Origin: Eledone cirrhosa
Lineage: Eukaryota
DNA: 64,000 nucleotides
Direction: 5' to 3'
Assembly: GCA_964016885.1 (NCBI GenBank)
Contig: OZ024752.1
Coordinates: 24,180,001-24,244,000, forward strand
Shown here: in pieces, positions 1 through 64,000 of the stretch
How the letters are laid out: each line of letters opens with the position of its first letter
Position numbering within the stretch: position 1 is the first letter of the stretch
The notes under the pieces: generated by a model
What the model was told of the DNA's origin: nothing
The model's database searches: none
The model's input: the letters and a program-made list of their open reading frames with translations, nothing else
Program-made: the position numbers and the translations under genes

Positions 1-1257
1 CTTGAATACCTCCTGTTTCTGGTCCTCACGTTGTAAAACATGCTTGAATTTTCTATCCTCTGCTTCCCTCCTAGCTAAGTATACTTGTCGCCTAGCTTCC
101 CTCTTGGTCTCTATGTAATGTACCCTGCTCCCCCCGTTCTTCCATTCTTTCCATGCCTGTCTCTTGGCCTTGACTGCTTCATCTACCTTATTGTTCCACC
201 ACCAAGTCACTCTCCTCCTGCTTGAGGTCTTACTCCAGCCACAAACCTCATCCGTCGCCTCTAGTAAGTTATTTTTTAGGAACTCCCAGTTCTCTTCTAC
301 GTTAAATGTCTCTATCTGTTCTTCTTTACTGTCGTAGGCGTTGAGTAAAATATCTTTAAATCTGTTACTGGTTGAGGGGACTTTCAGCTTCCAGATCTTT
401 CTTCTCCAGGTTGGCCTCTGTTTCAGGGCTCGTCTAGTTCTGACCGTGAGGTCGCTGACAACTAAGCTATGTTGGGATGTACATTCCTCACTAGGGAAGG
501 CTTTTGTGTTTACGACCGTCCATCTGTCACGTCCTCTGATGAGGATAAAATCTAACTGACTAGAGTGCTCCCCTGATCTATAGGTGATCAGGTGGTTGTC
601 GGGTTTTTTAAAGTTTGTGTTACATATCGACATGTCATTGGCGTCGCAGAATTCTAGAAGTCTGAATCCTTCCTCATTCCTTGTGCTAACTCCATGGCCT
701 CCATGTACTCTATTGAAGCCGTCGCAGTGTTTACCTACGTGTCCGTTAAAATCTCCTGCAATGATTAGGAAGTCCTTGTCGTCTGTTAGAGCAGTAGTGT
801 GTATTAGGGACTCGTAAAACCTATCCTTAAGTTCGTCTGGCAGCCCCGATTGGGGTGCGTAAGCTGATATTATTGTGGTAATTGTCTTATTCAGGACTAG
901 TCTGAGTTTAATGATTCTTGCATTTACCCTGTACACTGAGATTACTTTATCTACCCACTTGTCAGCTAATAGTATACCTACACCACCCATCCCATCGTCA
1001 TTTCCCACCCAGAAAAATTTGTAGCACTGGCTTTTTCCTACAAGGACTCTAGCAGACCCTCCTCTCCATCTAGTCTCTTGCACACAGCATACATCAACTT
1101 CCTTTCGCTCTAGCATTTCTACGATTTCTCCTGCTCTTCCTTTCATTGAGCCTACATTGATGGTACCAACTCGGAGTTTTGGGCATTTGTCGACACTCGT
1201 AGGGGAGGGTCTCTGGGTTGGCGCTTCACGTGGGTGCTTGGTAGCTCGCAGATTCAT
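1..1257 (-). mobile_element. RTE-clade LINE, 5' part of ORF (AP endonuclease plus linker); 419-codon frame running off the window start
   Basis: Manual translation from ATG 1257: ...LRVGTINVGSMKG...VCCVQETRW...ISAYAPQ...IAGDFNGHVG...QLDFIL...SQHSLVV...TWWWN...EVFK at position 1. No stop seen, so it is absent from the ORF track. Confidence 0.93.
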
Positions 1258-1326
1258 ATTTCAGATTCATATATAAATATATATACATATATAAATATAT
1301 ATCGACATATATAAATATATATTTTG

Positions 1327-2456
1327 TGGCTTTCCACAAAATACATATAGTTAGCACCCCAAACACTTAAATTGGGTTATACTAACATATAACCTAATGT
1401 TTGTTGAGGGAGATGGTTACCAGTCGGAGTTTAGCGTTAAGCTATCTCTGTTATTGTATTAAATATGTTACTCTTGATTTGGCCAGAGGTACTTATTTCC
1501 AGGTACCTTATAAACATGACTTTCTGTATTTGTTACTGTTGTGAGATATGGAGGTTTTTTGGTTGTCACTTCTCTGTTTTTAGCCTAAGAAAAAATATAT
1601 ATATGCGTGTGTAAATAATTACATGCATACATTTATTTTTTAAATTAATTGATTTCTTAACGCGTGGAATTGATAATAGTTTTAAATAACTAATTAACCC
1701 GCGTGTATTAAATATTTTACTCTTAATTTGGCCAGAGATTTACATTCCCAATCGCCTTTAAAGCGTAACCTTCAGTATTTGCTGCGGTGATGTGATGCGG
1801 TTTGTTATTTTGGTATCACCTCTGTTTTTAGCCTAAGAAAATATCTATATGCGTGTGTAATTAATACACGCATACATTTATTTTTTTAATTTCAATTGAG
1901 TTCTTAACACGTTGGATTGATAATGTTTTTGAAAAAACTAATTAACCCGAGTGTATATTATTTTTTTATTTTCTTGTGTATCGTGGTTGTCTCCCTTTCC
2001 CGCTTCGTGACGCTATGAAACTTCCTCAGTCAAAAGACTGCTGGAATTTCAAATTTGGCGGTCATTCGATGCGTGAGGGAGCAGCTTAGCAGACACGATT
2101 TTTAACTGCGGTAAGAATTTTTTCTTATATCAAAGTTTAATGGGCTTCCACTGAAGATTTATAAGTGCCCACCTAAATATATTCTTACATGAATATATGT
2201 TAGGCTTCTACATAAACTGGAAACATTCTCCCAATTTGTAGAAAACTTATAATGAAACAATTGTTTGGAAAAACAGATATATTTTAACTTTAATTATATC
2301 TCATAAAATAATACAACTGGCTTTCCACAAAATACATGTAGTTAGCACCCAAACACTTAAATTGGGATATACTAACATATAACCTAATATTTGTTGAATG
2401 AGATGGTTACCAGTCGGAGTTTAGCGTTAAGCTATCTCTGTTATAGTATTAAATAT
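1327..2456 (+). mobile_element. Non-coding partial-tandem element (991-bp unit plus 140-bp terminal direct repeat) carrying a hammerhead; retrozyme/PLE-derived
   Basis: 1327-1466 repeats at 2318-2456; internal ~250-bp diverged duplication (~1457-1705 vs ~1706-1955); HHR at 2146-2270; (TA)n on both sides. Confidence 0.7.
2146..2270 (+). ncRNA. Type I hammerhead ribozyme with branched stem II
   Basis: UUCCA-CUGAAGA(2151-57)-stem II (UUAUAAGU/ACUUAUAA closing two hairpins)-GAAA(2254-57)-CAAUUG-UU-UGGAA; helix III is the palindrome ACAAUUGU. Confidence 0.8.
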
Positions 2457-2710
2457 ATATAAATATATATATATATATCCATATATACATATATATAAAT
2501 ATATATATACATATATAAATATATATATATATACTCATATATACATATATATATATATATATATACATATATGTAGATAAATCTACCAAAAATTTACGGT
2601 AGTGTCCAATCCGCATGAAGAACTCAATGTAATCCGGATATCATGAAAAGAGAAGATGCATCCAAAAACTATTTTCGGTGAAAATTAACGGAAAACAGAG
2701 TCAAGATAAA

Positions 2711-2866: not shown

Positions 2867-3007
2867 TGTGTTTCTTATTGGCAACATGACCCTCCCAAAG
2901 CATAACAATATATATATATACATATATAAATATATAAATGTATACATATTTATATATGTATATATATATATTGTTATGCTTTGGGAGGGTCATGTTGCCA
3001 ATAAGAA

Positions 3008-3011
<4 letters not shown>
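2867..3011. repeat. Foldback inverted repeat, ~65-bp arms
   Basis: tgtgtttcttattggcaacatgaccctcccaaagcataacaatatat...atatattgttatgctttgggagggtcatgttgccaataagaaacaca. Confidence 0.92.
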
Positions 3012-3063
<52 letters not shown>

Positions 3064-3065
<2 letters not shown>

Positions 3066-3405
3066 GAAGGCACATAGCTTAGTGATTAGAGCATTGGCCT
3101 TGCAATTGAAAGGTTGTGAGTTCAATTCTCAGACTGGGTGATGTGTTGTGTACTTGAGCAAGACACTTTATTTCACATTGCTCCAGTTTACTCAGCTGTA
3201 GAAATGAGATGATAGGGAATGGGGTCCATATTATTCCACTGTAAAGTGGTCGTGGAGGTGCGACGGCAAAAAAGCACCCAGCACTCACTGTAAATGAGGT
3301 TGATGTTAGGAAGGGCATCCAGCTGTAGAAATCAAGCCAGAATCAGTTCCCGTCCCACCCTTGCAAGCAAGGAAAAGCGGACGTAAAATGATGATGATGA
3401 TGATG
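3064..3405 (+). mobile_element. tRNA-derived CORE-type SINE with RTE-derived 3' tail ending in (GAT)n
   Basis: A box tagcttagtgattag, B box gagttcaattc, CORE-like cttgagcaagacacttta; 3236-3405 resembles the RTE 3' UTR at 47046-47302. Confidence 0.8.
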
Positions 3406-16518: not shown

Positions 16519-16561
16519 ACGCTGTACTAGTTTCAAGCTTATGAGCTATCATCAGCAACGT
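16519..16561 (-). ncRNA. Minimal type I hammerhead ribozyme
   Basis: Minus strand: ACGUUG-CUGAUGA-U AGCU CAUA AGCU U-GAAA-CUAG-UA-CAGCGU; helix III palindrome ACUAGU; helix I extends with AAGG/CCUU. Confidence 0.82.
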
Positions 16562-20266: not shown

Positions 20267-22712
<2,446 letters not shown>

Positions 22713-23064
22713 AATGATTTCTTCTTCAACAGAATATATAAATGTTTTCTTTGTAATATTTTTTATATTATATTTCTTATGAAATATTTCTTCTTCTATA
22801 TTTCCCTCAACTGTGATTTCAGTTAATATCTGAAGATAATACAAACTTATGTTTCATCCAAGTATAGTTAAAATACAAAACCATCTCATAGTGATGAAAA
22901 TAAACTTAGTTCTGAAGAAATATTTCACAGTATTTCGACAACAGAATTATATAAAGAGTGTTATATAAGTTCTGTTAAAAAAGTTTTAGTCTTCAAATGA
23001 TGATAAATAGAAGTGATGTATCCAAGATTGAAAATAATAATTTATCCAAATTTCATCTGATATT

Positions 23065-29199: not shown

Positions 29200-30806
29200 A
29201 TATATACACGATATATATGTCTAAGGGAAAGGTTATGGCCAATACAGCTTGGTACCAGTGACATCACAACATATACTATATATATTATACAGTATATATA
29301 CACTATATATATGTCCAAGGGAAAGGTTATGGCGTATACAGCTTGGCACTAGTGACATCACAACATATATATACTATATATATACACTGTATATATTATA
29401 CAGTAAATATACACTATATATGTCTAAGAGAAAGGCTATGGTTGATACATCTTGGCACCAGTGACATTATAACTCATTTCTACAGCTGAGTAAACTGGAG
29501 CAACGTGAAATAAAGTGTCTTGCTCAAGGATACAACACATCACCCGGTCCGAGACTCAAACTCGCCACCTTTTAATTGTAAGCTCAATGCTCTAACCACT
29601 AAGCCATTATACGTTCCAGAACCAACCGTGATATAGAGAGACCATAAAGACAACCGTTGTTTTCATAGTTTAAGCCTTAAAATACCTCCCATACACGCTT
29701 TAAGTACATATAAACTCATTAAATCACACTTTTGTATTTAAACACTAAAAACAGCCAGTAACGATCGTATAGAAACTACCAGCAACCACCGTACCAAATT
29801 AGATATGTCCCAAAGAAATATCCGCGATGCTGTAGGACCGCGAAAAATGAACCGCGATATAGCGGGGGATTACTGTATATATACACACACAACATATATC
29901 TATCTATATACACTCATAATATTTATTTCGATTTTTTACATTAAAATGTTGACTGAGGGTGCGACAACTGTTTCTTGTTTGAGGTTGTTCCAGTGGTTGA
30001 AATATAGACGGAGGTATTTTAAATAATAAAGACAGTCATAATAACAATATATTTTATATCACATGTAACAGTGGAATCTGGAGATTGAAAAATAACCCAT
30101 CAACATTTCAGTTTGGAAGTTTTTTTTCTATATATAAAAGTGGAGGAAGAAATATATTTTTCCAATGTTATATATATTTTCACTTGTATATAATTACTGG
30201 ATCGTTGTAGGGTTCACATTATTATATTATTTACACACATTAACATAGACATTAAGTAAATCTTTGTCAACTTACCTCCTTCACATATAATCAATGTGTT
30301 GTGTTGTTAGTTTTTACTAAACAAACAAACAAATAATCTCTTCGTTATCAAATTAGAAGTTTCAAAGATGTTATCAGCTTTATTTCACGACATTAACGTT
30401 GGTGTATCTTCTTCAACTTTAGTCATAAATTGATATCTTGTCAGAATGAAGTAGTGAGGCTGACTTTGTGTCTTAAGCTACAGATTTGATAGGAAATATA
30501 TATATATTAGGTTGATATGTGGTCTAAAATATATATATTGTCTATAAATGACTGATAGCAGATGTTCTGGTGAAATAGTAGTTTTACTACTACAGATTGT
30601 AATGGAACTCTTAGTAGACACAATTGTAAAGTAAGAATAGATATGACAGTGTAAGACTGATGTCGGGGAATTAAAATTGTGTGTGTATATATATATATAA
30701 TTAGATTAATTAAAGTTATAATGAAGACAGCAGGTACGCGGTGTCGTCGGCTTGTTTGAACTCTCGTACCGGTGTCATACGTTAAAAGTCCCTGATACGA
30801 TTTAAT
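29200..30806. repeat. Local duplication (second copy ~37480-39481) containing a minus-strand CORE-SINE and one Tigger/pogo-like transposon end
   Basis: Colinear high similarity; SINE at 29472-29619 and 37803-37945; TIR-like gaaccgcgatatagcgggggattactg|TA near 29876 and 38517. Confidence 0.85.
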
Positions 30807-37470: not shown

Positions 37471-39297
37471 CATATATTATATATAGACTGTGTACAGGAT
37501 ATATTATGCACTATATATAATGTTATCCAAGAGAAAGGCAATGGCTGATACAGCTTGGCACCAGTATCACAACATATATACTATATATATATTATATATA
37601 CACTGTATACAGTATATAATATGCACTATATATGTTGTTGTCCAAGAAAAAGGCTATGGCTGATACAGCTTGGCACCAGTATCACAACATATATACTATA
37701 TATATATTATATACACAGTGTACAGTATATATTATACACTATAAATAATGTTGTCCAAGAGAAAGGCAATGGCTGATACAGCTTGGCACCAGTAACATCA
37801 CAACTTATTTCTACAGCTGAGTAAACAATGTGAAATAAAGTGTCTTGCTCAAGGACACAACACATCACACGGTTCAACAATAGAACTCACAACCATTCGA
37901 TTGCAAGCCCAATGCTCTAGCCACTAAGCCATGATACCTTCCAGAACGAACCGTGATATAGAGAGACCATAAAGACAACCGTTGTTTTCATAGTTTAAAC
38001 CTTAAAATACCTCCCATACACGCTTTAAGTACATATAATCTCATTAAAACACACTTTTGTATTTCAATACCAAAAACAGCCAGTAACGATCGTATAGAAA
38101 CTACCACCAACCATCATACCACTAGTTACCAATGAGGACTATTGCCAGCCACGGTAGCCACTTGGTAATACACTGCACATCTCTCGTCAATCTATGAAGG
38201 GTTTGTAGTAGATTAGAGAAAAACACAATCAGTAAAACAGTAATGGAATGAAAAATAAAAACATTTTTTTATAATTAAAGGCTTAAGGTGTCCCTTCCTT
38301 ACGATATACACTTTAATAACATTGAAACTTATTTAATAAGTTTAAATTTAAACACTTTTTATTCAGACGTACCGCGATAAGTAAATAGATATGTTCTAAC
38401 GAAAATTCCGCGATGTGGCGATGATTACCGCGATAGGAAATTAGATACGTTCCAAAGAAATATCCGCGATGTTGTGGGACCGCGAAAAGTGAACCGCGAT
38501 ATAGCGGGGGATTACTGTATATATACACACACAACATACATCTATCTATATACACTCATAACATTTATTTCGATTTTTGACATTAAAATGTTGACTGAGG
38601 GTGCGACAACTGTTTCTTGTTTGAGGTTGTTCCAGTGGTTGAAATATAGACGGAGGTATTTTAAATAATAAAGACAGACATGATAACAATATATTTTATA
38701 TCACATGTAACAGTGGAATCTACTGATTGAAAAATATCACATCAACATTTCAGTTTGGAAGTTTTTTTTTATATATATAAAAGTGGAGGAAGAAATATAT
38801 TTTTCTAATGTTGTTATATATATTTTCACTTGTATATAATTACTGGATCGTTGTAGGGTTCACATAATTATATTATTTACACACATTAATATAGACATTA
38901 AGTAAATCTTTGTCAACTTACCTCCTTCAGATATAATCAATGTGTTGTGTTGTTAGTTTTTACTAAACAACCAAAGAAATAATCTCTTTGTTATCAAATT
39001 AGAAGTTTCAAAGATGCTATCAGATTTATTTCACGACATTAACGTTGGTGTACTTTCTTCATCTTTAGTCATAAATTGATATCTTGTCAGAATGAAGTAG
39101 TGAGGCTGACTTTATATCTTTAGCTTCAGATTTGATAGGAAATATATATATATATATTAGGTTGATATGTGGTCTAAAATATATATATTGTCTATAAATG
39201 ACTGATAGCAGATGTTCTGGTGAAATAGTAGTTTTACTACTACAGATTGTAATGGAACTCTTATGACATTGTAAGACTGATGTAGGGGAGAGAAAAT

Positions 39298-42194: not shown

Positions 42195-43203
42195 TCTCCC
42201 AATTAGCATAATTAACCACACAAAAAATCCTGGTATATATATAAGCATTTCTAACTTTAATTTTATACCTAATTGTGTATGTTGACCGTATATTTAATTA
42301 ATTTCCACGTGCTGTTGAAATGTTGGGTAAATATTCTATAGCGGTTGGCCGCGAAGACGCTGCTATCGTTTATTTATTTACTGTTTGTTCATAGGTGCCT
42401 TTTAATCTTATAGCCTGGTCTAATTGATTTTTTGTGTGGTTAATTATGCTAATTGGGAGAAGAAATGATGTATATATATTATCAAATGATTCTATGGAAA
42501 TGCTTTACTTTATAGTATTTTGCTATGATTATTTAATTTATTAATTCTTCATTGAGCCACATCGTGAATGGTTGCCAAAACACATATATATCTGTGACTT
42601 TGTTTAATTGGTGTATATGTAAATATTTATATTTAATAATCTCCCATAAGGTTGAGATGCAATTTGGGCGATATTGGGCTGCGCTTTCTAGCTACCAACC
42701 CACTCGCCGTAAGCAACCAATCACACTCTTTCTGACTTGACCACTGCCACGTCACAGTTCTCAGCCATTTTGAATTCGTGTTTGGCGGGGGCCACTTCAG
42801 AAAATAATCTGTCCTAGCGAGTTTGTCCCCTGAAGAGTTAGAAACTCAAGATTTATCCTTAATAGGATATCTCAAAATGAGAACGAAACCCATGGGTCGG
42901 GATTTAGGGATTTAATCCTGGTATGTATATAAGCATTTCGAACTTTAATTTTATACCTAATTGTGTATGGTTGACCGTATATTTAATTAATTTCCACGTG
43001 CTGTTGAAATGTTGGGTAAATATTCTATAGCGGTTGGCTGAGAAGACGCTACTATCGTTTATTTATTTACTGTTTCTTCATAGGTGCCTTTTAATCTTAT
43101 AGCCTTGTCTAATTGATTTTTTGTGTGGTTAATTATGCTAATTGGGAGAAGAAATGATGTGTATATATTATCAAATGATTCTATGGACATGCTTTACTTT
43201 ATA

Positions 43204-43207
<4 letters not shown>
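42195..43207 (+). mobile_element. Non-coding partial-tandem element (688-bp unit, 293-bp direct repeat, 35-bp inverted terminal copy) carrying a hammerhead
   Basis: 42226-42518 repeats at 42914-43207; 42195-42229 is the reverse complement of 42426-42460; (TA)n on both sides. Confidence 0.8.
42825..42903 (+). ncRNA. Type I hammerhead ribozyme with long stem II
   Basis: GUCCC-CUGAAGA(42830-36)-GUU..CUCA..UAUCCU UAAU AGGAUA..UGAG AAC-GAAA(42885-88)-CCCAUGGG-UC-GGGAU; GUC cleavage triplet; palindromic helix III. Confidence 0.85.
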
Positions 43208-43489: not shown

Positions 43490-46400
43490 CATCCATACAA
43501 ATCTTTCAGGTATCCCTCTATTTCCCCAATTGCAAATGTTCTGCTCACAATTATTGCTGTATATATCACTTCGATAGCTTCCACAACACATTTATTTTTT
43601 TACCCTTATTTTCTCTACCATGCTGCCTCTCTATCTGTCTATACTTCCCATCAGATGCTACAGGCCATGACTTGGCTACCTACCTCATATTCGACCAATC
43701 AAACCTCAGCTCCCCCCCCCCACTACCAACCCCAACAAACCCTGCCATTTCTACTACTACCTAACTCTCTCCTCCCCCGTCCCAGCCCAACACACCCTGC
43801 CATTATTACCACCACCACTGTTCTTCTAGCCCTGAATTTTCCTACCGTTATGTATGGATGAGCTGAGAATAAATTGGAGCAACTCTAAATTAATAGATGA
43901 AAATGAATATGAATCCGCCAGCTACCAAGCACCCATGTGAAGCTCCAATTCAGAGACAGGAAGCACACACACACCCCTCCAAAAATCGACCCTTCCCTGC
44001 GAATGTCGACAAATGCCCAAAACTCCGAGTTGGTACCATCAATGAAAGGAAGAGCAGGAGAAATCGTAGAGATGCTAGAGCGAAAGGAAATTGATGTATG
44101 CTGTGTGCAAGAGACTAGATGGAGAGGAGAGTCTGCTAGAGTCCTTGTAGGAAAAAGTCAGTGCTACAAATTTTTCTAGGTGGGAAATGACGATGGGATG
44201 GGTGGTGTAGGTATACTACTAGTTGACAAGTGGGTAGATTAAGTAATCTCAGTGTACAGAGTAAATGAAAGAATCATGAAACTCAGACTAGTGCTGAATA
44301 AAACAATTACCACAATAATATCAGCTTATGCACCCCAATCAGGGTTGCCAGACGAACTTAAGGATAGGTTTTACGAGTCCCTAATGCACACTACTGCTCT
44401 AACAAACGACAATGACTTCCTAATCATCGCAGGAGATTTTAACGGACACGTAGGTAAACACTGTGACGGCTTCAATAGAGTCCATGGAGGCCATGGGGTT
44501 GGCACAAGAAATGAAGAAGGATTCAGACTTCTAGAATTCTGCGACGCCAATGACATGTCGATATGAAACACAAACTTCAAAAAACTCCGCAACCACCTGA
44601 TCACCTATAGATCAGGGGAGCATTCTAGTCGGACAGATTTTATCCTCATCAGAGGACGTGACATATGAACGGTCGTAAACACAAAAGCCTTCCCTAGTGA
44701 CTAATGTACCTCCCAACATAGCTTAGTTGTCAGCGACCTCACGGTCAGAACTAGACGAACCTGGAAACAGAGGCCAACCTGGAGAAGAAAGATCTGGAAG
44801 CTGAAAGACCCCTCAGCCAGTAACAGATTTAAAGATATTTTACTCAACGCCTACGACAGTAAAGAAGAACAGATAGAGACATTCAATGTATAAGAGCACT
44901 GGGAGTTCCTAAAAAATAACTTACTAGAGGCGGCGGATGAGGTCTATGGCTGGAGTAAGACCAAAAGCAGGAGGAGAGTGACTTGGTGGTGGAGCAATAA
45001 GGTAGATGAGGCAGTTAATACCAAGAGACAGGCATGGAAAGAATGGAAGAACGGGGAGAGCAGGGTACATTACATAGAGACCAAGAGGGAAGCTAGGCGA
45101 CAAGTATACTTAGCTAGGAGGGAAGCAGATGATAGAAAATTCAAGCATGTTTTGCAACGTGAGGTGTTCAAGATTGCGAGGCAGTGTGTCAGAGAGAATT
45201 GTGATGTCATTGGAGAGAAGTGTTTTCGGAATGATAAAGGTGAGCTTGCCCTCACAAGTGCTGAAAAGAAAGATGCATGGAAGAGCCATTATGATAGATT
45301 ACTAAATGAGGAGAATGCATGGGAAGAAGAGACCCTACCCCAAGTAGACCCTATAGAGGGGCCATCAGTACAAGTCAGCAGCAGCGTAGTAAGTAAGGCA
45401 ATCAAAGATATGAAGATGGGGAAGGCAACCGGTCCATCGGGTATAGCTGCCGAGATGCTGAAGGCATCGGGGTCTGTAGGTCACACTATAACCACACGTA
45501 TTGTTAACCAGGTAATACTAGAAGGTGTCATACCAAAAGATTGGTGCAGTAGCATCATTGTCAACTGCTACAAAGGTAAAGGCGATGCACTAGATAAAGG
45601 AAACTATAGAGGTATAAAGCTGATGGACCAGGTCATGAAAGTAACAGAAAGATTTATAGCACAGTTGATTAGGGACCGGGTGAAACTAGATGAGATGCAA
45701 TTTGGGTTTGTACCAGGAAGAGGCACCACTGATGCCCTCTTCCTTGTGAGGCAGTTACAGGAAAAGTACCTAGCCAAAAGTAAGCCACTCTACCTAACAT
45801 TCGTCGATCTCGAGAAAGCCTTTGACAGAGTTCCACGTGCTATAATCTGGTGGGCTCTTAGAAAACTAGGAGTAGATGAATTGGCTTGTGAAAGCTGTAC
45901 AAGCCATTTATAGGGGAGCAGTCAGCAAAGTTAGGATTAGCAATGAGTATAGCGAGGAATTTAGCGTACAGGTTGGTGTCCACCAGGGCTCTGTTCTTAG
46001 CCCTCTCCTGTTCATCATAGTCCTGCAGGCAATAACGGAGGACTTTAAGACCGGATGCCCATGGGAACTCTGTATGCAGATGACCTCGCACTTATAGCTG
46101 AATCTATGGTGGAACTAGAGAAGAAATTCCAAACTTGGAAGCAGGGACTAAAAAGAAAGAGTCTCAAAGTCAACATGACAAAGACTAAGGTCCTTGTAAG
46201 TAGACGAGAAACCAGAACCCTTCAGGGAAATGGCCTTGCTCAGTATGTAGGAAAGGTGTAGGTAGGAACTCCATTCTCTGCCCCAAATGAAAACAATGGG
46301 TACACAAGAGATGTAGCGGGATCTCAGGAAGCTTAATTAAGAATGTAGGCTTCACATGTAGCAGCTGTGCTGGGACAGCAAGCAGCAAACAGCAACAGGA

Positions 46401-47302
46401 AAGAAGTACCACCAATCTCTGGGAGGGCTCTGTAGAGACAGTAGACAGCTTCTGCTACCTAGGTGACCGAATTAGCAGCGGAGGTGGGTGTTCAGAAAGT
46501 ACAACAACTAGGGTAAGAACGGGATGGAAGAAGTTCAGGGAACTACTGCCACTGCTAGCTGCAAAATGAAAGGCAGACTGTATGATGCGTGTATCCGAAC
46601 AGCAATGTTATATGGTAGTGAGACCTGGGCACTGAAAGTGGAAGACTTACGTAGATTAGAGAGAAACGAAGCCTGCATGCTCCGATGGATTGTAATAGTA
46701 ATATACGCGAACGGCAAAGCATAAATGAATTGAGAGAGAGACTGAGCATAAGAGGAATCAAATGCTCTGTGCAGAAGAGGCGGTTGCGTTGGTATGGACA
46801 TGTGATGCGTATGAAGGATGACAGCTGCATAAAAAGATGCAGAGCACTATAAGTCAATGGAAACCGCGGAGTGGGGAGACCCAAGAAGACCTGGGATGAG
46901 GTGATAAAAGCCGACCTTACCAAATTACACCTTTCATAGGCGATGACACACGACCGTGACTTCTGCCGTGACGCAGTAATACGGAGTACCCGACCTCCCA
47001 TGGGTACAAGCTAAAGCATATAGACAATATGCCCCCACAACCTCCCACTGCAAAGTGGTCGTGGAGGTGCCACGGCAAAAAAGCACCCAGCCCACACTGT
47101 AAAGTGTAGGCGCCACGGAAAAAAGCACCCAGCACTCACTATAAATGAGGTTGGTGTTAGGAAGGGCATCCAGCTGTAGAAATCAAGCCAAAATCAGTTC
47201 CTGTATGAGCAAGCATGGTCAGCCGACCAGACACTGCCCACAACAGGACAACCCGTCTAACCCATGCTAGAATGGAAGAACGGACGTAAAACGGTGATGA
47301 TG
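43490..47302 (+). mobile_element. Near full-length but decayed RTE LINE, same subfamily as 1-1257
   Basis: Consecutive APE and RT ORF pieces 43937-46900 with many stops and frameshifts; 3' end cggacgtaaaacggtgatgatg. Confidence 0.93.
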
Positions 47303-47503: not shown

Positions 47504-50500
47504 CTAGCAGCAGGACCCGGCGTTGCGCGGGGTAGGAACCATGAAATAGCAACACGCATATGCAAAGATTGAGGAATGTAGTTGTGTACTTTTTGAATTC
47601 CCTTATTCTCAGGGAATGATTGTTCATCTACTGGAAACGTAGAACACCAGCAGGCAGAATCCAGTAGTAGCGGTGTCAGTGGGCTGATTGCGGAAATCCT
47701 GTATGCGAAAGGAGTAAGTGTTGTGGGGCGATGTATGTTGTAAGTCTGTTCACGAATTACGTCACAGATGGGGAACACACATCAGTCTGAAGGAGCGACG
47801 TAGTCAATTGTGTGAAAACCAAGTAGGGATGTACATTTTAGTAGGGATATTGAGATGACGAAATCAGCGTGGCAACGCAGCTGCTGCAGAAGGGGTTATG
47901 GTGCAATTAGCACAAACACTGGGCGTGCATTTACACAGCAACAAAGGTGCGACAAAAGGGGTCACTGCAGAATTAGCACAACCGCTGTTCAGCGTACTTG
48001 CGCAGAACGTTCATACTGCAGTGTATGTGCAACAAAAGGGGTCTTAGTAGAAGTAGCACAGACGTGAGTTTTATGGTGTCAATAGCACGGCAACAATAGG
48101 GCCCGGATTTGTGCGTGATGAAAGTACGAAAAATCAACAGGGTGCCGACAAATATTTTAAGGTGCTCCTCATTTTCTCAATCCCCCGAAAATGGCCCTGC
48201 TTAAAAGTAAGTAAGTGTTGTGTCCTCTGTTAAATAAACTACATTTTTGAACGAAATATTATACACTACTTACGATGTTTAAGTAGCGTTTATATTGAAA
48301 ATGAAAAAGGCATGTAATGCCCAATGCTAATTAATAAATTTCCTAGAAACCATTAATGGAATCGGAAATATTTTTGTCCACAGTAATGTGAGGGGACTAA
48401 CTAATGTGTGCTGCAAATTCCGAGGAAATCGGTTGGATTATCTTTAAGTAACGCCTCAAAAAAGACTAAAAATGCCTAAAAATGCGGTTTTTCGCCTAAT
48501 GTGGACCCTAGGGCAGAAAAAGTTAACATTTTTTTAGCCCATTGCACTTCAAGAAATATAAGTAACATATGTGTAGAGTTTGAAAAAAGTCGGTTGGGTA
48601 CTTCTCGAGTTTTAGGGATTTACACAGACAGGCAGACATCCTCTGTTTTATATTTATATATATATACTTGCAAATGACCCCCGTCCATTGGACGGTGTCA
48701 GTTCTTGGTAGGGCTGCAATGTTAATGGTCAATTTCCGTGTTGTATGTTTAACTTGGAGGATAATTTTACCTGATCAACTCTTTCAATAAAACAAAATGA
48801 GACGGTATTCAAAAAGAGCCAGTTTTATTTACAGAAATGTGTCATTAAAATGTGAACATAGAGAAATGTATCGTTAGCCGTGTCGGTTGAACAATGTGTA
48901 ATTTTTTTTATTAATAACCGAAAGACAAACAGTAAATGAGACTGGATGTCAAACCATTTTGGATTGCATGTAAAGGTGATAAAAAGATCAGGACGGCCAC
49001 AATGGCGGACATAGGTCAGAGCATCCTGCATGTTTTCATGCATGTAACGGGGGCCTCCAGTGTATGATGATGGGAGAATGACAGAAAGCCCAACATCCGA
49101 AGCATTAGCCTGATCATTTCGGTTTACTTCGTCACGTAGATTGCCGTATTCTTCTGAACGCGGTTCCTTTTGATGATGTCTTATCCATTGGAGGCGTTCA
49201 GTGTCAATCTTAGCAAATATGTCTACACAGTATTGATTGAGGAGCATCCGTGTTCTATGCAGAATGTTGACGTCGTTTTTGCGAAACATAAGTCTAAATG
49301 CATAAAATTCCATTTGTGAAATGGTTTTCCCTGGTGTAAGATGCATTAAACTTACAGGATTACCCTTTTGCAAATCAATGCGGTAGCCATCGTCGCCAAA
49401 GGGGAACAGCAATGGATACTGGAGAGCATCATATGCGGGATGAAGTTCATTTATTTTTTGAAGATGCGAGTCCTGCCATTCAATAACAATATCACGGTTT
49501 GAAGCGCTCTGATTAGGACGTGTTATAATCACCGCAACTTCATCGGTTTGGGGTCTATTAAAGCAACCCTGATGCTGCCCTGGTGGAGCGCGGTCATTTC
49601 GAATGACAACCTTGTATTGATTGTTGTTAGCATCTCTACGTTGTAAAGCAGTTTTGAAAATGGTGATGTACGGGTTTATGGAATGAAGCATATATGGAAG
49701 GGGCTGCAGAAGAGAAGGTGTCGTTCCTTTAGCAACTGAAGCCCTTCGTGCAATTTCTTCAGGTCCGTTGCCCATAAAGTAGATCTGGAGAAAACTGTGT
49801 TCTTTGCCATCTTGTGGAATAAGTGATCCTATTTGATGGTAAATTTGGCTTTGCACTTTAAATGTGGGCATATAATTCCCATCTTTTTATTGTTGTATGA
49901 CCAAAGCTTGTCATTTGGAAAGCCGAATTGTAGGCTCTTATATTTCTGAAAAAGTGTTTAGAATCAGGGTGGTCTCCAAGCAGCAGAGAATTCAAAGGTT
50001 CGGCACCGACTTGTAAATAAGGCAATCTAACCGTTCCATTGGAGCAACATATACCGGTAGATTCCGCTGGCCACCTCATTGCATTACAATGGACGCAAAC
50101 AGTTGATATACTACCAATGATGATATGTGGATGGGATGCGTAGTCCTCTTGGGGGTTGTATTGAAAACCTTCTTGGGGGTTGTATTGAAAACCTTTCTTA
50201 GACCAGTAACAGGAAGAATCCCTCGGAAAGACATAAGTACGCATTTTCCGTTGAGAATCAGCCGCAAGCCTTGTTGCCCTTTGGTCAACAGTCTCTAAAG
50301 CACGGCTATTGGAATTAAAAGCAGCATTGCGAGCACGCCGGAGTTCTGCTTGTTCAGCTTTCTGTAATGCTTTGATGTTCAAAGTAGAGGCAGCATTGTG
50401 AGCACGCTGGAGTTCTGCTTGTTCAGTTGTTTGTAATGCTCTGGCGATCGAGGTAGAAGCAGCATTGCGAGCACGCCGTAGCACACATTGTTCTTCTGTT

Positions 50501-52063
50501 TCGCTTGCGCGCAAAGAACGCAAAGCAAAAGCATTTTTTGTTTTTTTTCCAATGTTACTCTTTCTTTTTCGAGGCATTCTACCGAAAATATGTAATTGAA
50601 TAAAGCTGATACAAATCAATTAAAAGAAATAAATAGTTGTGTACAATGTGTAAATTTTTGTAATAATAAGCAAGACGAAAAAGTATATTTTATCATCTGC
50701 TTTTTCTACACGGGAATTATATATTAGATTTTCATACTTACAAAATAATTTTGCTAATATCGTGTTTAGCAGTGTCGGTTGAGCAATGTTTAAATATTTG
50801 ATTAAAAACCAAAAGACAAACAGTAAATATATTTCAACCTCTGAATAAGTATTAAAGAAATGACGATTTTCACTTTGAAAATATGATTTATGACATCAAA
50901 ACTGCTTTAGAGTTTAATTTTTTGAATAAAAAGTATCGTCTGTTATTTCTTACAATTAACACATTTATACACACACATGCACACACGCACACACATACGC
51001 ACGTACACACACACACAAACACATACACACACAAACATACACACAAACACACACACATACGCACACAATCCCAAGACGTGACGTTGTGGAAAAGGGAGAG
51101 TTAAGAAGTGTAATAAATAAGTTAAAATTATAAACACTGTATTTATCGCTAAAGTATCGTCTGTTATTTCTTACAATTAACACATTTATACACACACACA
51201 CACATGCACACACGCACACACATACGCACGTACACACACACACAAACACATACACACACAAACACATACACATACACACACACACATACGCACACAATCC
51301 CAAGACGTGACGTTGTGGAAAAGGGAGAGTTAAGAAGTGTAATAAATAAGTTAAAATTATAAACACTGTATTTATCGCTAAAGTATCGTCTGTTATTTCT
51401 TACAATTAACACATTTATACACATACACACACACATGCACACACGCACACACATACGCACGTACACACACACACACAAACACACACATACAAACACACAC
51501 ATACACACACAAACACACACACACACACAATCCCAAGACGTGACGTTGTGGAAGGGGGAGAGTTAAGAAGTGTAATAAATAAGTTAAAATTATAAACTCT
51601 GTATTTATCATATTCGCGTCACACACACTCCTCTCTTTCTTTATTTTACTCTCTCTCTCTCACTCCTCTCTTTCTATCTCCCTCTCACACATCCTTCTCT
51701 CTCTGGCCGTTATGGAAATTACACACACACACACACACACAAACACATACACACACATATACACACGCACATACACATACAATCCCATAACGTCGTGTTG
51801 TGGAAGGGGGAGAGTTAAGAACTGTGTAAAAGGAACGCTCTCTCTCTTTAATGGCCGTCATGGAACTTGTTAGTGCAAAAGCCTATAAGATTATAAAATC
51901 GAAGTTTGTGACTTCGAAATTAATCATTATGAAATAATTTTTTCTTTATGTTACAAACCGTAGCCTATTTTGGCTATGTGTTTAATTTGACAGAGATGGA
52001 TGGAATATTTTCCAAGTGAAACTCTTTTACACACACACACAGAACGGGAATTATATATATAGA
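47504..52063 (-). mobile_element. Helitron concatemer including a Rep-fragment-bearing unit
   Basis: A|CTAG plus hairpin (cccggcgttgcgcggg) at 47504; GA|T at 52063; internal termini at ~48667 (hairpin ccgtccattggacgg) and 50728; three ~230-bp CA-rich tandem units 50930-51600. Confidence 0.8.
48935..50577 (-). pseudogene. Helitron RepHel N-terminal fragment, frameshifted near 49880 and truncated after Rep motif 1
   Basis: MPRKRK.., CVHC..CCSNG zinc finger, RNIRAYNSAFQMTSFG, LQYPLLFP.G..GY, ILPSSYTGGPRYM, GRPDLFITFTCNPKW. Confidence 0.92.
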
Positions 52064-61913: not shown

Positions 61914-63278
61914 TCAGTGATATGGTTTATCTCCTGTATGTATACGTTGGTGTCTAGTTAAGGTACTACTTTGAGAGAATGATTTACCACAGATGTCACA
62001 GTGATATGGCTTGTCGCCTGTATGTATACGTTGGTGTCTAGTTAAGGTACTACTTTGAGAGAATGATTTACCACAGATCTCACAATGAAATGGCTCATCT
62101 CCTGTATGTCTACGTTTGTGAGAAGTTAAAGTATAACTACGAGAAAATGATTCACCACAGATATCACAGTGATATGGTTTATCCCCTGTATGTATACGTT
62201 TGTGGGTAGTTAAGTTACAACTATTAGAGAATGATTTACCACAGATATCACAGTGGTATGGTTTGTCTCCAGTATGTATACGTTTGTGGGAAGTTAAGTG
62301 AGTACTATCAGAGAATGATTTCCCACAGATATCACAGTGATATGGCTTGTCTCCTGTATGTGTACGTTTGTGGCTAGTTATGTGACTACTTTGAGAGAAT
62401 GATTTACCACAGATATCACAGTGATATGGTTTGTCTCCTGTATGTGTACGTTTGTGGCTAGTCTTGTGACCACTTTCAGAGAATGATTTACCACAGATAT
62501 CACAGTGATATGGCTTGTCTCCTGTATGTATACGTTTGTGAGTAGTTAAGTTACTACTTATAAAAAATGATTTACCACAGATATCACAGTGGTATGGCTT
62601 GTCTCCTGTATGTATACGTTTGTGAGAAGTTAAGTGACTACTATCAGAGAATGATTTCCCACAGAAATCACAGTGGTATGGTTTGTCCCCTGTATGTATA
62701 CGTTTATGAGAAGTTAAGGTACTACTTTGAGAGAATGATTTACCACAGATATCACAGTGATATGGTTTGTCTCCTGTATGTATATGTATGTGTCTAGTTA
62801 AGGTACTACTTTGAGAGAATGTTTTACCACAGATCGCACAAAGATATGGCTTCTCTCCTGTATGTCTACTTTTGTGAGTAGTTAAGTTACTACTTTGAGA
62901 GAATGATTTATCACAGATATCACAGTGATATGGTTTGTCTCCTGTATGTATATGTTTGTGCTTAATTAAGCAACTACTTTCATAGAATGATTTACCACAG
63001 ATCTCACAATGATATGGCTCATCTCCTGTATGTATACGTTTGTGAGTAGTTATGGCACTACTTACAGAGAATGATTTACCACAGATATCATAGTGATATG
63101 TCCTCTCTCCTGTATGTATGCGTTTGTGGCTGGTTAAGGTACTACTTACAGAGAATGATTTATCACAGATATCACATTTATAGGGATTCTCTTCTCTAAC
63201 CTTTGTCATCTCACCAGGAATATTAAACACTTTAGATTGTGTTTCGCATTTAATCTTCTCATCCAATTTATTTTCCAT
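61914..63278 (-). CDS. Tandem C2H2 zinc-finger protein, paralog 2: 14 intact fingers plus 1 degenerate
   Basis: Same 28-aa repeats; probable ATG 63278 ([16 protein letters not shown]); terminated by a 2-nt deletion (YH*); decayed fingers continue to ~61280. Confidence 0.88.
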
Positions 63279-64000
63279 AATGATTTTTTTCTTCAACAGA
63301 ATATAAAGATGTTTTTCTTGGAATATTTTTAATATTACATTCCATATTTCCCTCAACTGTGATTTGAGTTAATATCTGAAGATAATACAAACTTTTTCAT
63401 CCAAGTTTAGTAAAAATACAAAATCATCTCATAGTGAAGAAAATAAACTCAGTTTTGAGGAAATATTTCACAGTAATTGAACTATAGATTTATATAAACT
63501 GTGTTATATGAGTTCTGTATAAAACATTTTTGTCTTCAAATGATGGTAGATAGAGCTGATGTATCCAACATTGAAAATAATAATTTATCCGAATGTCATC
63601 TGTTATTCTGAAATGAAAAAGAAACAGTATGAGATAATAGAGAATACTTTAGAAGCAGAGATAGATTTAACAGTGGAAATTTTATATTTTTATATTGATA
63701 AACTGTAGATATCAACTTTCCTGTCCAGAGCAATTCTCCCCAATGTAAATTATATCTTTCTATCTCTTGGGAGGTCTGCTTCATGGCAGTTTAGCGAAAA
63801 ATTTATTTTTATAGGACTTTCTAACATAGCTAACATCTCTCCTGGTGACATGTCAACACTGGTTTAACATATACATATATATATACACAGACGGACGCTC
63901 AGCGACAATGCCAAAGATAAAGACAAATTCACCTCGTGGACGAGAATGCGAGCACTCCTCTTTATTTCGACCGCGGACGGCTAACATAACCCCATCTTCC

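Follow-up and report, generated by a model that had tools for sequence, protein, structure and literature searches.

The segment at 1327–2456 of the DNA analysed here (64,000 nt from Eledone cirrhosa, hereafter the window) raises the question of whether a hammerhead ribozyme (HHR) of an animal retroelement can carry a long, branched stem II, and to which kind of element such a ribozyme belongs. Published descriptors restrict this part of the molecule. For example, a core-only spacer of 7–17 nt was used in the search for hammerheads of Penelope-like elements (PLEs; Craig, 2021, PMC8557442), and the minimal HHR descriptor in the supplement of PMC4209133 admits a stem II of 3–7 bp and a loop 2 of 3–10 nt. 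The element is likely to be a non-autonomous Penelope-like retroelement, or animal non-LTR retrozyme, most like those of the Hydra clade, and to carry a type I hammerhead in which stem II has developed into a three-way junction.

Organization of the Element and Its Surroundings

The element is delimited by a direct repeat. Its left copy (1327..1466, plus strand) and right copy (2318..2456, plus strand) are identical at 133 of 140 positions (95%, one gap) at an offset of 991, which equals the unit length; the 991-nt unit and 140-bp repeat proposed by the first-pass annotation were thereby recovered. The left repeat resembles a pseudo-LTR, that is, a 5′-truncated second round without the ribozyme. 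The right repeat starts about 53 nt past the predicted cleavage site (cleavage after 2265, repeat at 2318), again as first proposed, and its 3′ end lies 191 nt downstream of that site. At the 5′ junction, 1320..1329 (minus strand) is a fold-back inverted copy of 1334–1343, with 10 exact pairs (z −5.70); seven of its letters lie beyond the repeat boundary, and the fold-back is not present ahead of the right repeat. Microsatellites of (TA)n type, with no strand assigned, border the element on both sides (1273..1319, 91% A+T, and 2457..2570, 93% A+T), and two contig ends of the family adjoin (TA)n too.

The 991-nt unit has a GC content of 32%. Self-comparison and a joint fold define two internal modules on the plus strand, the hairpin-rich module A of about 250 nt (1455..1703) and module B (1704..1964), which shares 79% identity with module A. 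All 34 pairs are retained when both are folded jointly, 27 of them unchanged, six with a change on one side and one with changes on both. A possible 63-nt spliceosomal intron (2073..2135, plus strand; a low-confidence consensus match) ends 11 nt upstream of helix I and is reminiscent of the Drosophila virilis Penelope intron; the joints listed for the family include none produced by splicing, in runs of which none is recorded as RNA. Directly past the cleavage site there is a further hairpin (2274..2302, plus strand), which gains one pair when position 2274 carries the letter most frequent in the family. The longest frame inside the element has 57 aa, and the longest stop-to-stop frame overlapping it has 63 aa and consists largely of flanking microsatellite. 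A tRNA-derived SINE was considered and ruled out, given 0 tRNA genes and no likeness to the LINE copies in the window.

The 64-kb window is rich in (TA)n microsatellites and also contains fragments of LINEs, arrays of C2H2 zinc fingers, a Helitron-like fragment and an LTR-type one. To the left, a LINE fragment with an endonuclease domain (1–1272, minus strand), 93.6% identical to a copy at 43988–45164, closes on its 5′ side in an 11-nt duplication by the microsatellite, head to head with the element. The downstream microsatellites hold long inverted repeats at 2706–2829 (120 nt, 92.5%) and 2868–3011 (40 nt, 100%), and a SINE-like repeat with an (ATG)n end lies at 3064–3390, with partial copies at 29473–29607, 37801–37943, and 47095–47204. 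Single-exon C2H2 zinc-finger arrays at 20412–22853 and 61914–63368 (minus) are about 80% alike, the first having been confirmed in Pfam, and an N-terminal fragment of a Helitron-like helicase is found at 48825–50619 (minus).

A Hammerhead with a Branched Stem II

Pattern scan, fold model and shuffles place a type I hammerhead motif at 2146..2270 (plus strand). The core elements CUGANGA (2151–2157), GAAA (2254–2257) and NUH (2263–2265) are all present, according to the core definition in which H is A, C or U (Perreault, 2011, PMC3088659); the last of them reads GUU, and the cut is predicted after 2265. The core is flanked by helices I, II, and III of 5, 8, and 2–3 bp, and helix I (2146–2150/2266–2270) is the open one, as in type I. 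Helix III is an 8-nt perfect palindrome (2257..2264) with a self-duplex energy of −6.4 kcal/mol and suits cleavage of a dimer. Below helix II, at 10.1–11.1, a U·U takes the place of a standard pair. It would be rejected by the strict filter set out in Perreault (2011, PMC3088659); it also occurs in active or catalogued hammerheads, so that it represents a known variant and no defining loss.

Stem II extends over 96 nt (2158..2253, plus strand) and comprises the U·U pair, a base helix of 8 bp (2159–2166/2245–2252), a 5-nt junction and two hairpins, IIa (2172–2204, z −4.31) and IIb (2206–2243, z −2.61). When it is folded alone, the minimum-energy (MFE) and centroid structures are both a three-way junction (−24.2 kcal/mol, z −5.57) that is equalled by none of 200 shuffles, in agreement with the 8-bp helix and two hairpins first annotated. 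In this model, stem II has become a three-way junction within a hammerhead that is predicted to self-cleave.

The motif at 2146–2270 is not a chance arrangement. When the unit was shuffled 160,537 times with its dinucleotides preserved, a helix I of at least 5 bp together with a helix II of at least 8 bp arose once, and never when a palindromic helix III was added; a loose motif with helices of 4+4 bp arose in 139. Public loci with both core boxes at the same spacing, retrieved with a relaxed pattern (at least 119 metagenome loci in 4 of 64 parts and at least 120 genome loci in 31 of 64 parts), served for comparison, and none of the 239 reaches helices of 3+3 bp. Because these loci have neither the helices nor blastn similarity, they are usable as a control only. 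The strict hammerhead pattern had 0 matches in metagenome contigs and 0 in genome contigs. In the window, a scan of both strands permitting a long stem II gave two candidates under tight settings, one being 2146–2270, and eight under loose settings, including the motif at 42.8 kb. Further hammerhead-like motifs of the loose scan lie at 16555, 16749, and 53165, all on the minus strand; in that at 16555, stem II has 14 nt and helix I has 6 bp. Rfam returned no hammerhead at the gathering score in the window nor at E ≤ 10 in the element. The suspicion that standard searches would miss this HHR was therefore justified, the published maximum for loop 2 being 10 nt. Weak Rfam miRNA matches in the element are AT hairpins far under the gathering score and were discarded.

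Outside the motif, a complementarity scan detected that the five bases 5′ of helix I (2141..2145, plus strand) match five junction bases 3′ of helix II (2167–2171), with which they could form a pseudoknot or an inhibitory helix. Such a 5-bp match occurs at 5 of 55,616 background places, or at 29 with 3 nt of slack. With the flanking sequence included, nested folding does not favour the hammerhead: the structure of lowest energy hides the core and is more stable than the hammerhead fold by 4.4 kcal/mol. The hammerhead is predicted to account for a share of 7e-4 with the tail and of 0.02–0.03 without it, a drop of about 30–50-fold, and these values may mislead as a measure of a brake since they come from ViennaRNA without pseudoknot scoring. 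On the other side, the tail–junction helix would be compatible with the hammerhead as a pseudoknot, although in this case it would connect the 5-bp helix I without a linker to a helix II of nine steps. Contacts of this type between stems I and II are described as common activating pseudoknots, and the pseudoknotted HHRs of Perreault (2011, PMC3088659) and that of sCYDV-RPV indicate that Watson–Crick helices can link both stems. The lower hammerhead share, the linker-less geometry and the core-hiding fold taken together make us lean toward a brake. If the element is a PLE, modelling suggests that the long stem II may act mainly as a brake, at something less than an even chance; an activating role of the tail–junction helix as a pseudoknot is a tentative option, and a stem II that is a tolerated insertion is tentative to the same degree. 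Large insertions outside the core have been reported to be tolerated in hammerheads, and U10.1·U11.1 to be the best-tolerated mismatch.

A Dispersed Multi-Copy Family

The element at 1327–2456 is real: it belongs to a dispersed, non-coding, multi-copy family that is also present in a second organism. Part of it was detected in 7 of 10 listed runs, spanning three studies. Four runs (X1, X5, X7, and X8) were aligned to 1467–2456 at 80% likeness, and X2–X4, X6, X9, and X10 were left out. X1, which may be the same source as the window, yielded 1240 contigs, with 343, 428, 334, and 135 of them at ≥99, 95–99, 90–95, and <90% identity, respectively. In X5, from the second organism and a second study, 33 contigs match the element, and in X8, raw reduced-representation reads from another study, 3430 reads do so. 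Three of the four X7 records are matches of 35–52 nt within unrelated records and were set aside; the remaining one (2291–2451, depth 3) stops near the 3′ end of the element, outside the ribozyme.

Several contigs run through stem II. One from X5 covers 2136–2249 with 3 differences and no gap, another from X5 covers 2142–2248 with 15 differences and 3 gaps, and a contig from X1 covers 2168–2271 with 7 differences. The long stem II is thus a trait of the family and not an insertion private to this copy. The variants considered are those of 40 substitution rows (of 203) and 12 indel rows (of 32), together with 20 of the 1281 pieces, each of these pieces covering the ribozyme in part. Those within 2141–2270 are found at 2155 (N7, the one free position of the core), in a bulge (2199), in loops (2190 and 2235), and at 2200, a paired place beside the bulge at which one listed indel lies. 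Four of the five places are accordingly unpaired, as compared with 38 of 130 free places in the model of this segment, and minor variants of the core or helices may exist besides. Most copies depart from the window at N7, which differs in 570 of 726 X8 reads and in six X5 contigs. By eye, an X5 contig end carries a variant of hairpin IIa that keeps 12 of 13 pairs (one double change, one wobble change and one mismatch, with a bulge), and loose contig ends vary in the loop of IIb and retain the 3′ strand of its stem. A sub-hairpin was lost alone in none of the eight listed joints; two deletions, each in a single X1 contig, begin upstream and run from 2066 to 2202 and from 2067 to 2142.

The AATT at the centre of the helix III palindrome was cut in 203 of 250 X8 molecules, from which we infer, the library being a restriction library, that the palindrome is mostly kept. 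Pile-ups of X8 read ends, including one at 2262 near the cleavage site, represent restriction ends, 6 of the 7 listed lying at AATT. At the X8 joints the letters are a blend of the beginnings of both modules, and module A of the 1455–1964 duplication is covered at low depth. Many members of the family may have a single module, with a unit of about 740 nt.

A Similarly Arranged Element at 42 kb

Another non-coding PLE-like element is found at 42195–43207 of the window. It has a 688-nt unit with a 294-nt repeat at 96.6% identity, a 5′ inversion of 35 nt, (TA)n flanks and a repeat that starts 16 nt past the cleavage site. Its type I hammerhead (42825–42903), also missed by Rfam, carries a 48-nt stem II and a 10-nt palindromic helix III, and a 6-bp tail–junction match falls in the same place as in the first element (background 19 of 55,769, or 186 with slack). 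A single GTRAG donor lies 121 nt upstream of its core. As to homology between both elements, the best blastn match has an E of 0.039, and three targeted local alignments were equalled by 2301, 203, and 252 of 3000 shuffles. Two readings of the first-pass annotation hold at this level: the elements share a layout, to which the (TA)n flanks and the inversion can now be added, with no obvious likeness in sequence, and the 1327–2456 element, with family contigs of its own and no significant match to the one at 42 kb, represents an independent family. An AT-rich word identical at 13 of 14 letters occurs in the post-cleavage hairpin loops of both (2285–2298 and 42941–42954); it was equalled in 203 of 3000 shuffles and is not significant.

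Relationship to Penelope-Like Elements and Retrozymes

Partial tandems, an inverted piece at the 5′ end and microsatellite targeting are hallmarks of PLEs (Craig, 2021, PMC8557442). The marks tested here, namely a pseudo-LTR partial tandem, a 5′ inversion, a (TA)n site and a non-coding multi-copy family, are all present, the 10-bp inversion being a weaker mark than the 35 nt of the 42-kb element. The placement is probably Hydra-like, a link drawn only from ribozyme features and target, as the element encodes no protein. Our count for the 25 Hydra-clade families in File S2 of the same source gives 14 with U·U at 10.1/11.1 and 10 with a U at the cleavage position; their hammerheads have a helix III of 3–4 bp and loops of 3–10 nt, (TA)n is the target of nearly all of these families, and Octopus is the host of one (PMC8557442). 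The element shares with them the type I hammerhead near the 3′ end, the U·U, the U at the cleavage site and the (TA)n target, and differs in having no ORF and a branched stem II of 96 nt in place of loops of 3–10 nt. The U·U is not exclusive to Hydra, since it occurs in the axolotl HHR_Amex2 and may occur in one row from D. willistoni. When short exact words of the element were compared with the Naiad, Chlamys, and Hydra consensi as published, in which line breaks can mask matches, nothing meaningful matched. As for an autonomous partner, no GIY-YIG PLE ORF was seen among the window ORFs of at least 120 aa (by eye, with four checked in Pfam).

Animal non-LTR retrozymes have been argued to be non-autonomous derivatives of PLEs (Li, 2026, 10.64898/2026.07.22.740005). 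As described there and in PMC7229834, they share with the present family a non-coding, low-GC unit of less than 1 kb, a type I hammerhead and a multi-copy state. In contrast to them, the copy studied here is a partial tandem inserted in (TA)n with a 5′ inversion and a far longer stem II, and it holds one ribozyme, two HHRs being the criterion for an active retrozyme (Li, 2026). In the same work, nine predicted retrozyme dimers were assayed in vitro and one of them cleaved. The axolotl ribozyme HHR_Amex2, which has a U·U at the base of stem II, was reported to reach 22% cleavage as a monomer and to cleave more efficiently as a dimer.

The minimal hammerheads of metazoan PLEs (PMC4209133) resemble this one in a helix II of 7–8 bp, a helix I of 4–5 bp, a palindromic loop III and a common U17; their stem II is closed by G–C and their loop 2 has at most 10 nt, as against the U·U and the 78-nt branched insert found here. 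Longer loops are those of the spike-moss PLE-X1_sMoe and PLE-X1_sTam (35 and 29 nt), which are drawn unbranched and have less than half the size of the present one. In the discontinuous Clec2 HHR, the large insert is in helix I and not in stem II. The mainly open-access full texts searched describe neither this family nor any hammerhead of an animal retroelement with a branched stem II; Repbase and Dfam, outside that scope, may include either. The novelty is confined to the long branched stem II with its tail–junction helix, the remaining ribozyme and the layout being those of known PLEs.

Alternative Explanations

A circular template is the first alternative to a PLE. If tandem masters released a unit RNA that was circularised, more than one round of reverse transcription would also leave a unit plus 140 nt. 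Size and composition (991 nt, 32% GC) fit animal retrozymes, whose consensus values are 51–972 bp and a GC below 45%, and the unit folds extensively as a circle in a calculation without shuffle control. Moreover, 107 X8 reads at three joints, with two to three starts each, pass from the repeat end into the body; these joints fit the left repeats of other partial tandems equally. The single ribozyme of this copy is at odds with an active retrozyme as defined above, and stops short of the cleavage site would be unexpected from a seamless circle. Since both elements (units of 991 and 688 nt) halt 53 and 16 nt before that site, a linear template is preferred to a circle, on the strength of just two cases. 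A circular origin is rather unlikely, and would be compatible with a PLE explanation, because the helper would be common to both. It is unlikely, too, that the ribozyme no longer cuts and that its branched RNA is either kept for protein binding or packaging or is drifting. The minimum-energy fold that hides the core and the helix I of just 5 bp would agree with a loss of cleavage, as would the anole PLE, whose insertion in vitro was unaffected by ribozyme mutants (PMC11167929). However, the family variation listed concentrates at N7, the bulge and the loops, the AATT of the palindrome is mostly retained (203 of 250 X8 molecules, judged from the restriction library), and the U·U and U17 are found in many published PLE hammerheads.

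An origin from Naiad PLEs, in which case the reported absence of canonical hammerheads in Naiads would be an artefact of short descriptors, is very unlikely. It is true that (TA)n is the target of Naiads too, that they are present in Octopus, and that eight of them, including Naiad_Ovul, are marked 'HHR_half_core', with the second half 35–50 nt away (PMC8557442). Nevertheless, the 3′ ends of Naiad_Ovul and Naiad_Obim have the boxes in reversed order and, by eye, no likeness to the element, and cephalopod Naiads are described as long-inactivated remnants (PMC8557442), whereas the present family has contigs at ≥99% identity. Least credible of all is that the element is a duplication, satellite-like or segmental, in which a hammerhead-like pattern arose by chance. 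AT-rich DNA folds readily, and the loose 4+4-bp motif does appear in shuffles (139 of 160,537); the observed helix lengths were reached only once, or not at all with the palindrome, and by 0 of 239 control loci, and a second element of the same layout in the window and the multi-copy contigs also speak against it.

By eye, the two Naiad 3′ ends just mentioned have a cleavage-site block, GAAA and CUGAUGA, with a 6-bp helix I, a 5-bp helix III and a weak helix II. In this order the boxes match the permuted hammerhead of type SGC (Eckert, 2023). If the half-core motif is real, some Naiads do have a hammerhead.

A Possible Cycle and Its Implications

For a non-autonomous PLE, a cycle may be proposed in which a tandem or partial-tandem master would be transcribed and the upstream hammerhead would cut, probably after dimerization via its helix III palindrome, setting the 5′ end of the RNA and leaving the downstream hammerhead uncut. 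The protein of an autonomous PLE would then nick (TA)n DNA, and reverse transcription would start about 190 nt beyond the uncut ribozyme, by analogy with PLE biochemistry. Copying would proceed through one unit and 140 nt of the next and would halt 53 nt from the 5′ end left by the cut, where a short fold-back would form. What is seen of this cycle is its DNA product (the partial tandem with fold-back), the (TA)n flanks, the predicted fold and the family. In the anole PLE, uncut RNA is the main substrate, cleavage is protein-assisted (Frangieh, 2024, PMC11167929), and target-primed reverse transcription proceeds from an internal start (PMC11167929). A brake could act here in a comparable setting: the tail–junction helix would form first during transcription, and the uncut template would be favoured until a protein or a partner RNA refolded the ribozyme.

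Animal hammerhead counts, and statements that a clade lacks HHRs, rest on descriptors with a short loop II, and a family-wide branched stem II of 96 nt therefore exposes a blind spot in them. The tail–junction helix offers a handle on the weakness of PLE hammerheads, and bears on how a single template can combine a 5′ end made by cleavage with an internal ribozyme left uncut. It would be a natural counterpart, by analogy, to engineered stem II aptazymes. More speculatively, and with a low probability, cephalopod-type genomes could hold a class of non-autonomous Hydra-like PLEs in which branched-stem-II hammerheads work as a folding switch, the tail–junction pairing being an off-state or a tertiary contact until a helper protein or partner RNA binds. 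The design recurs in both families of the window, despite their lack of relationship in sequence. If such a class exists, it would mean widespread ribozymes unseen by descriptors and by Rfam, and would explain some of the PLEs that have been reported as hammerhead-less.
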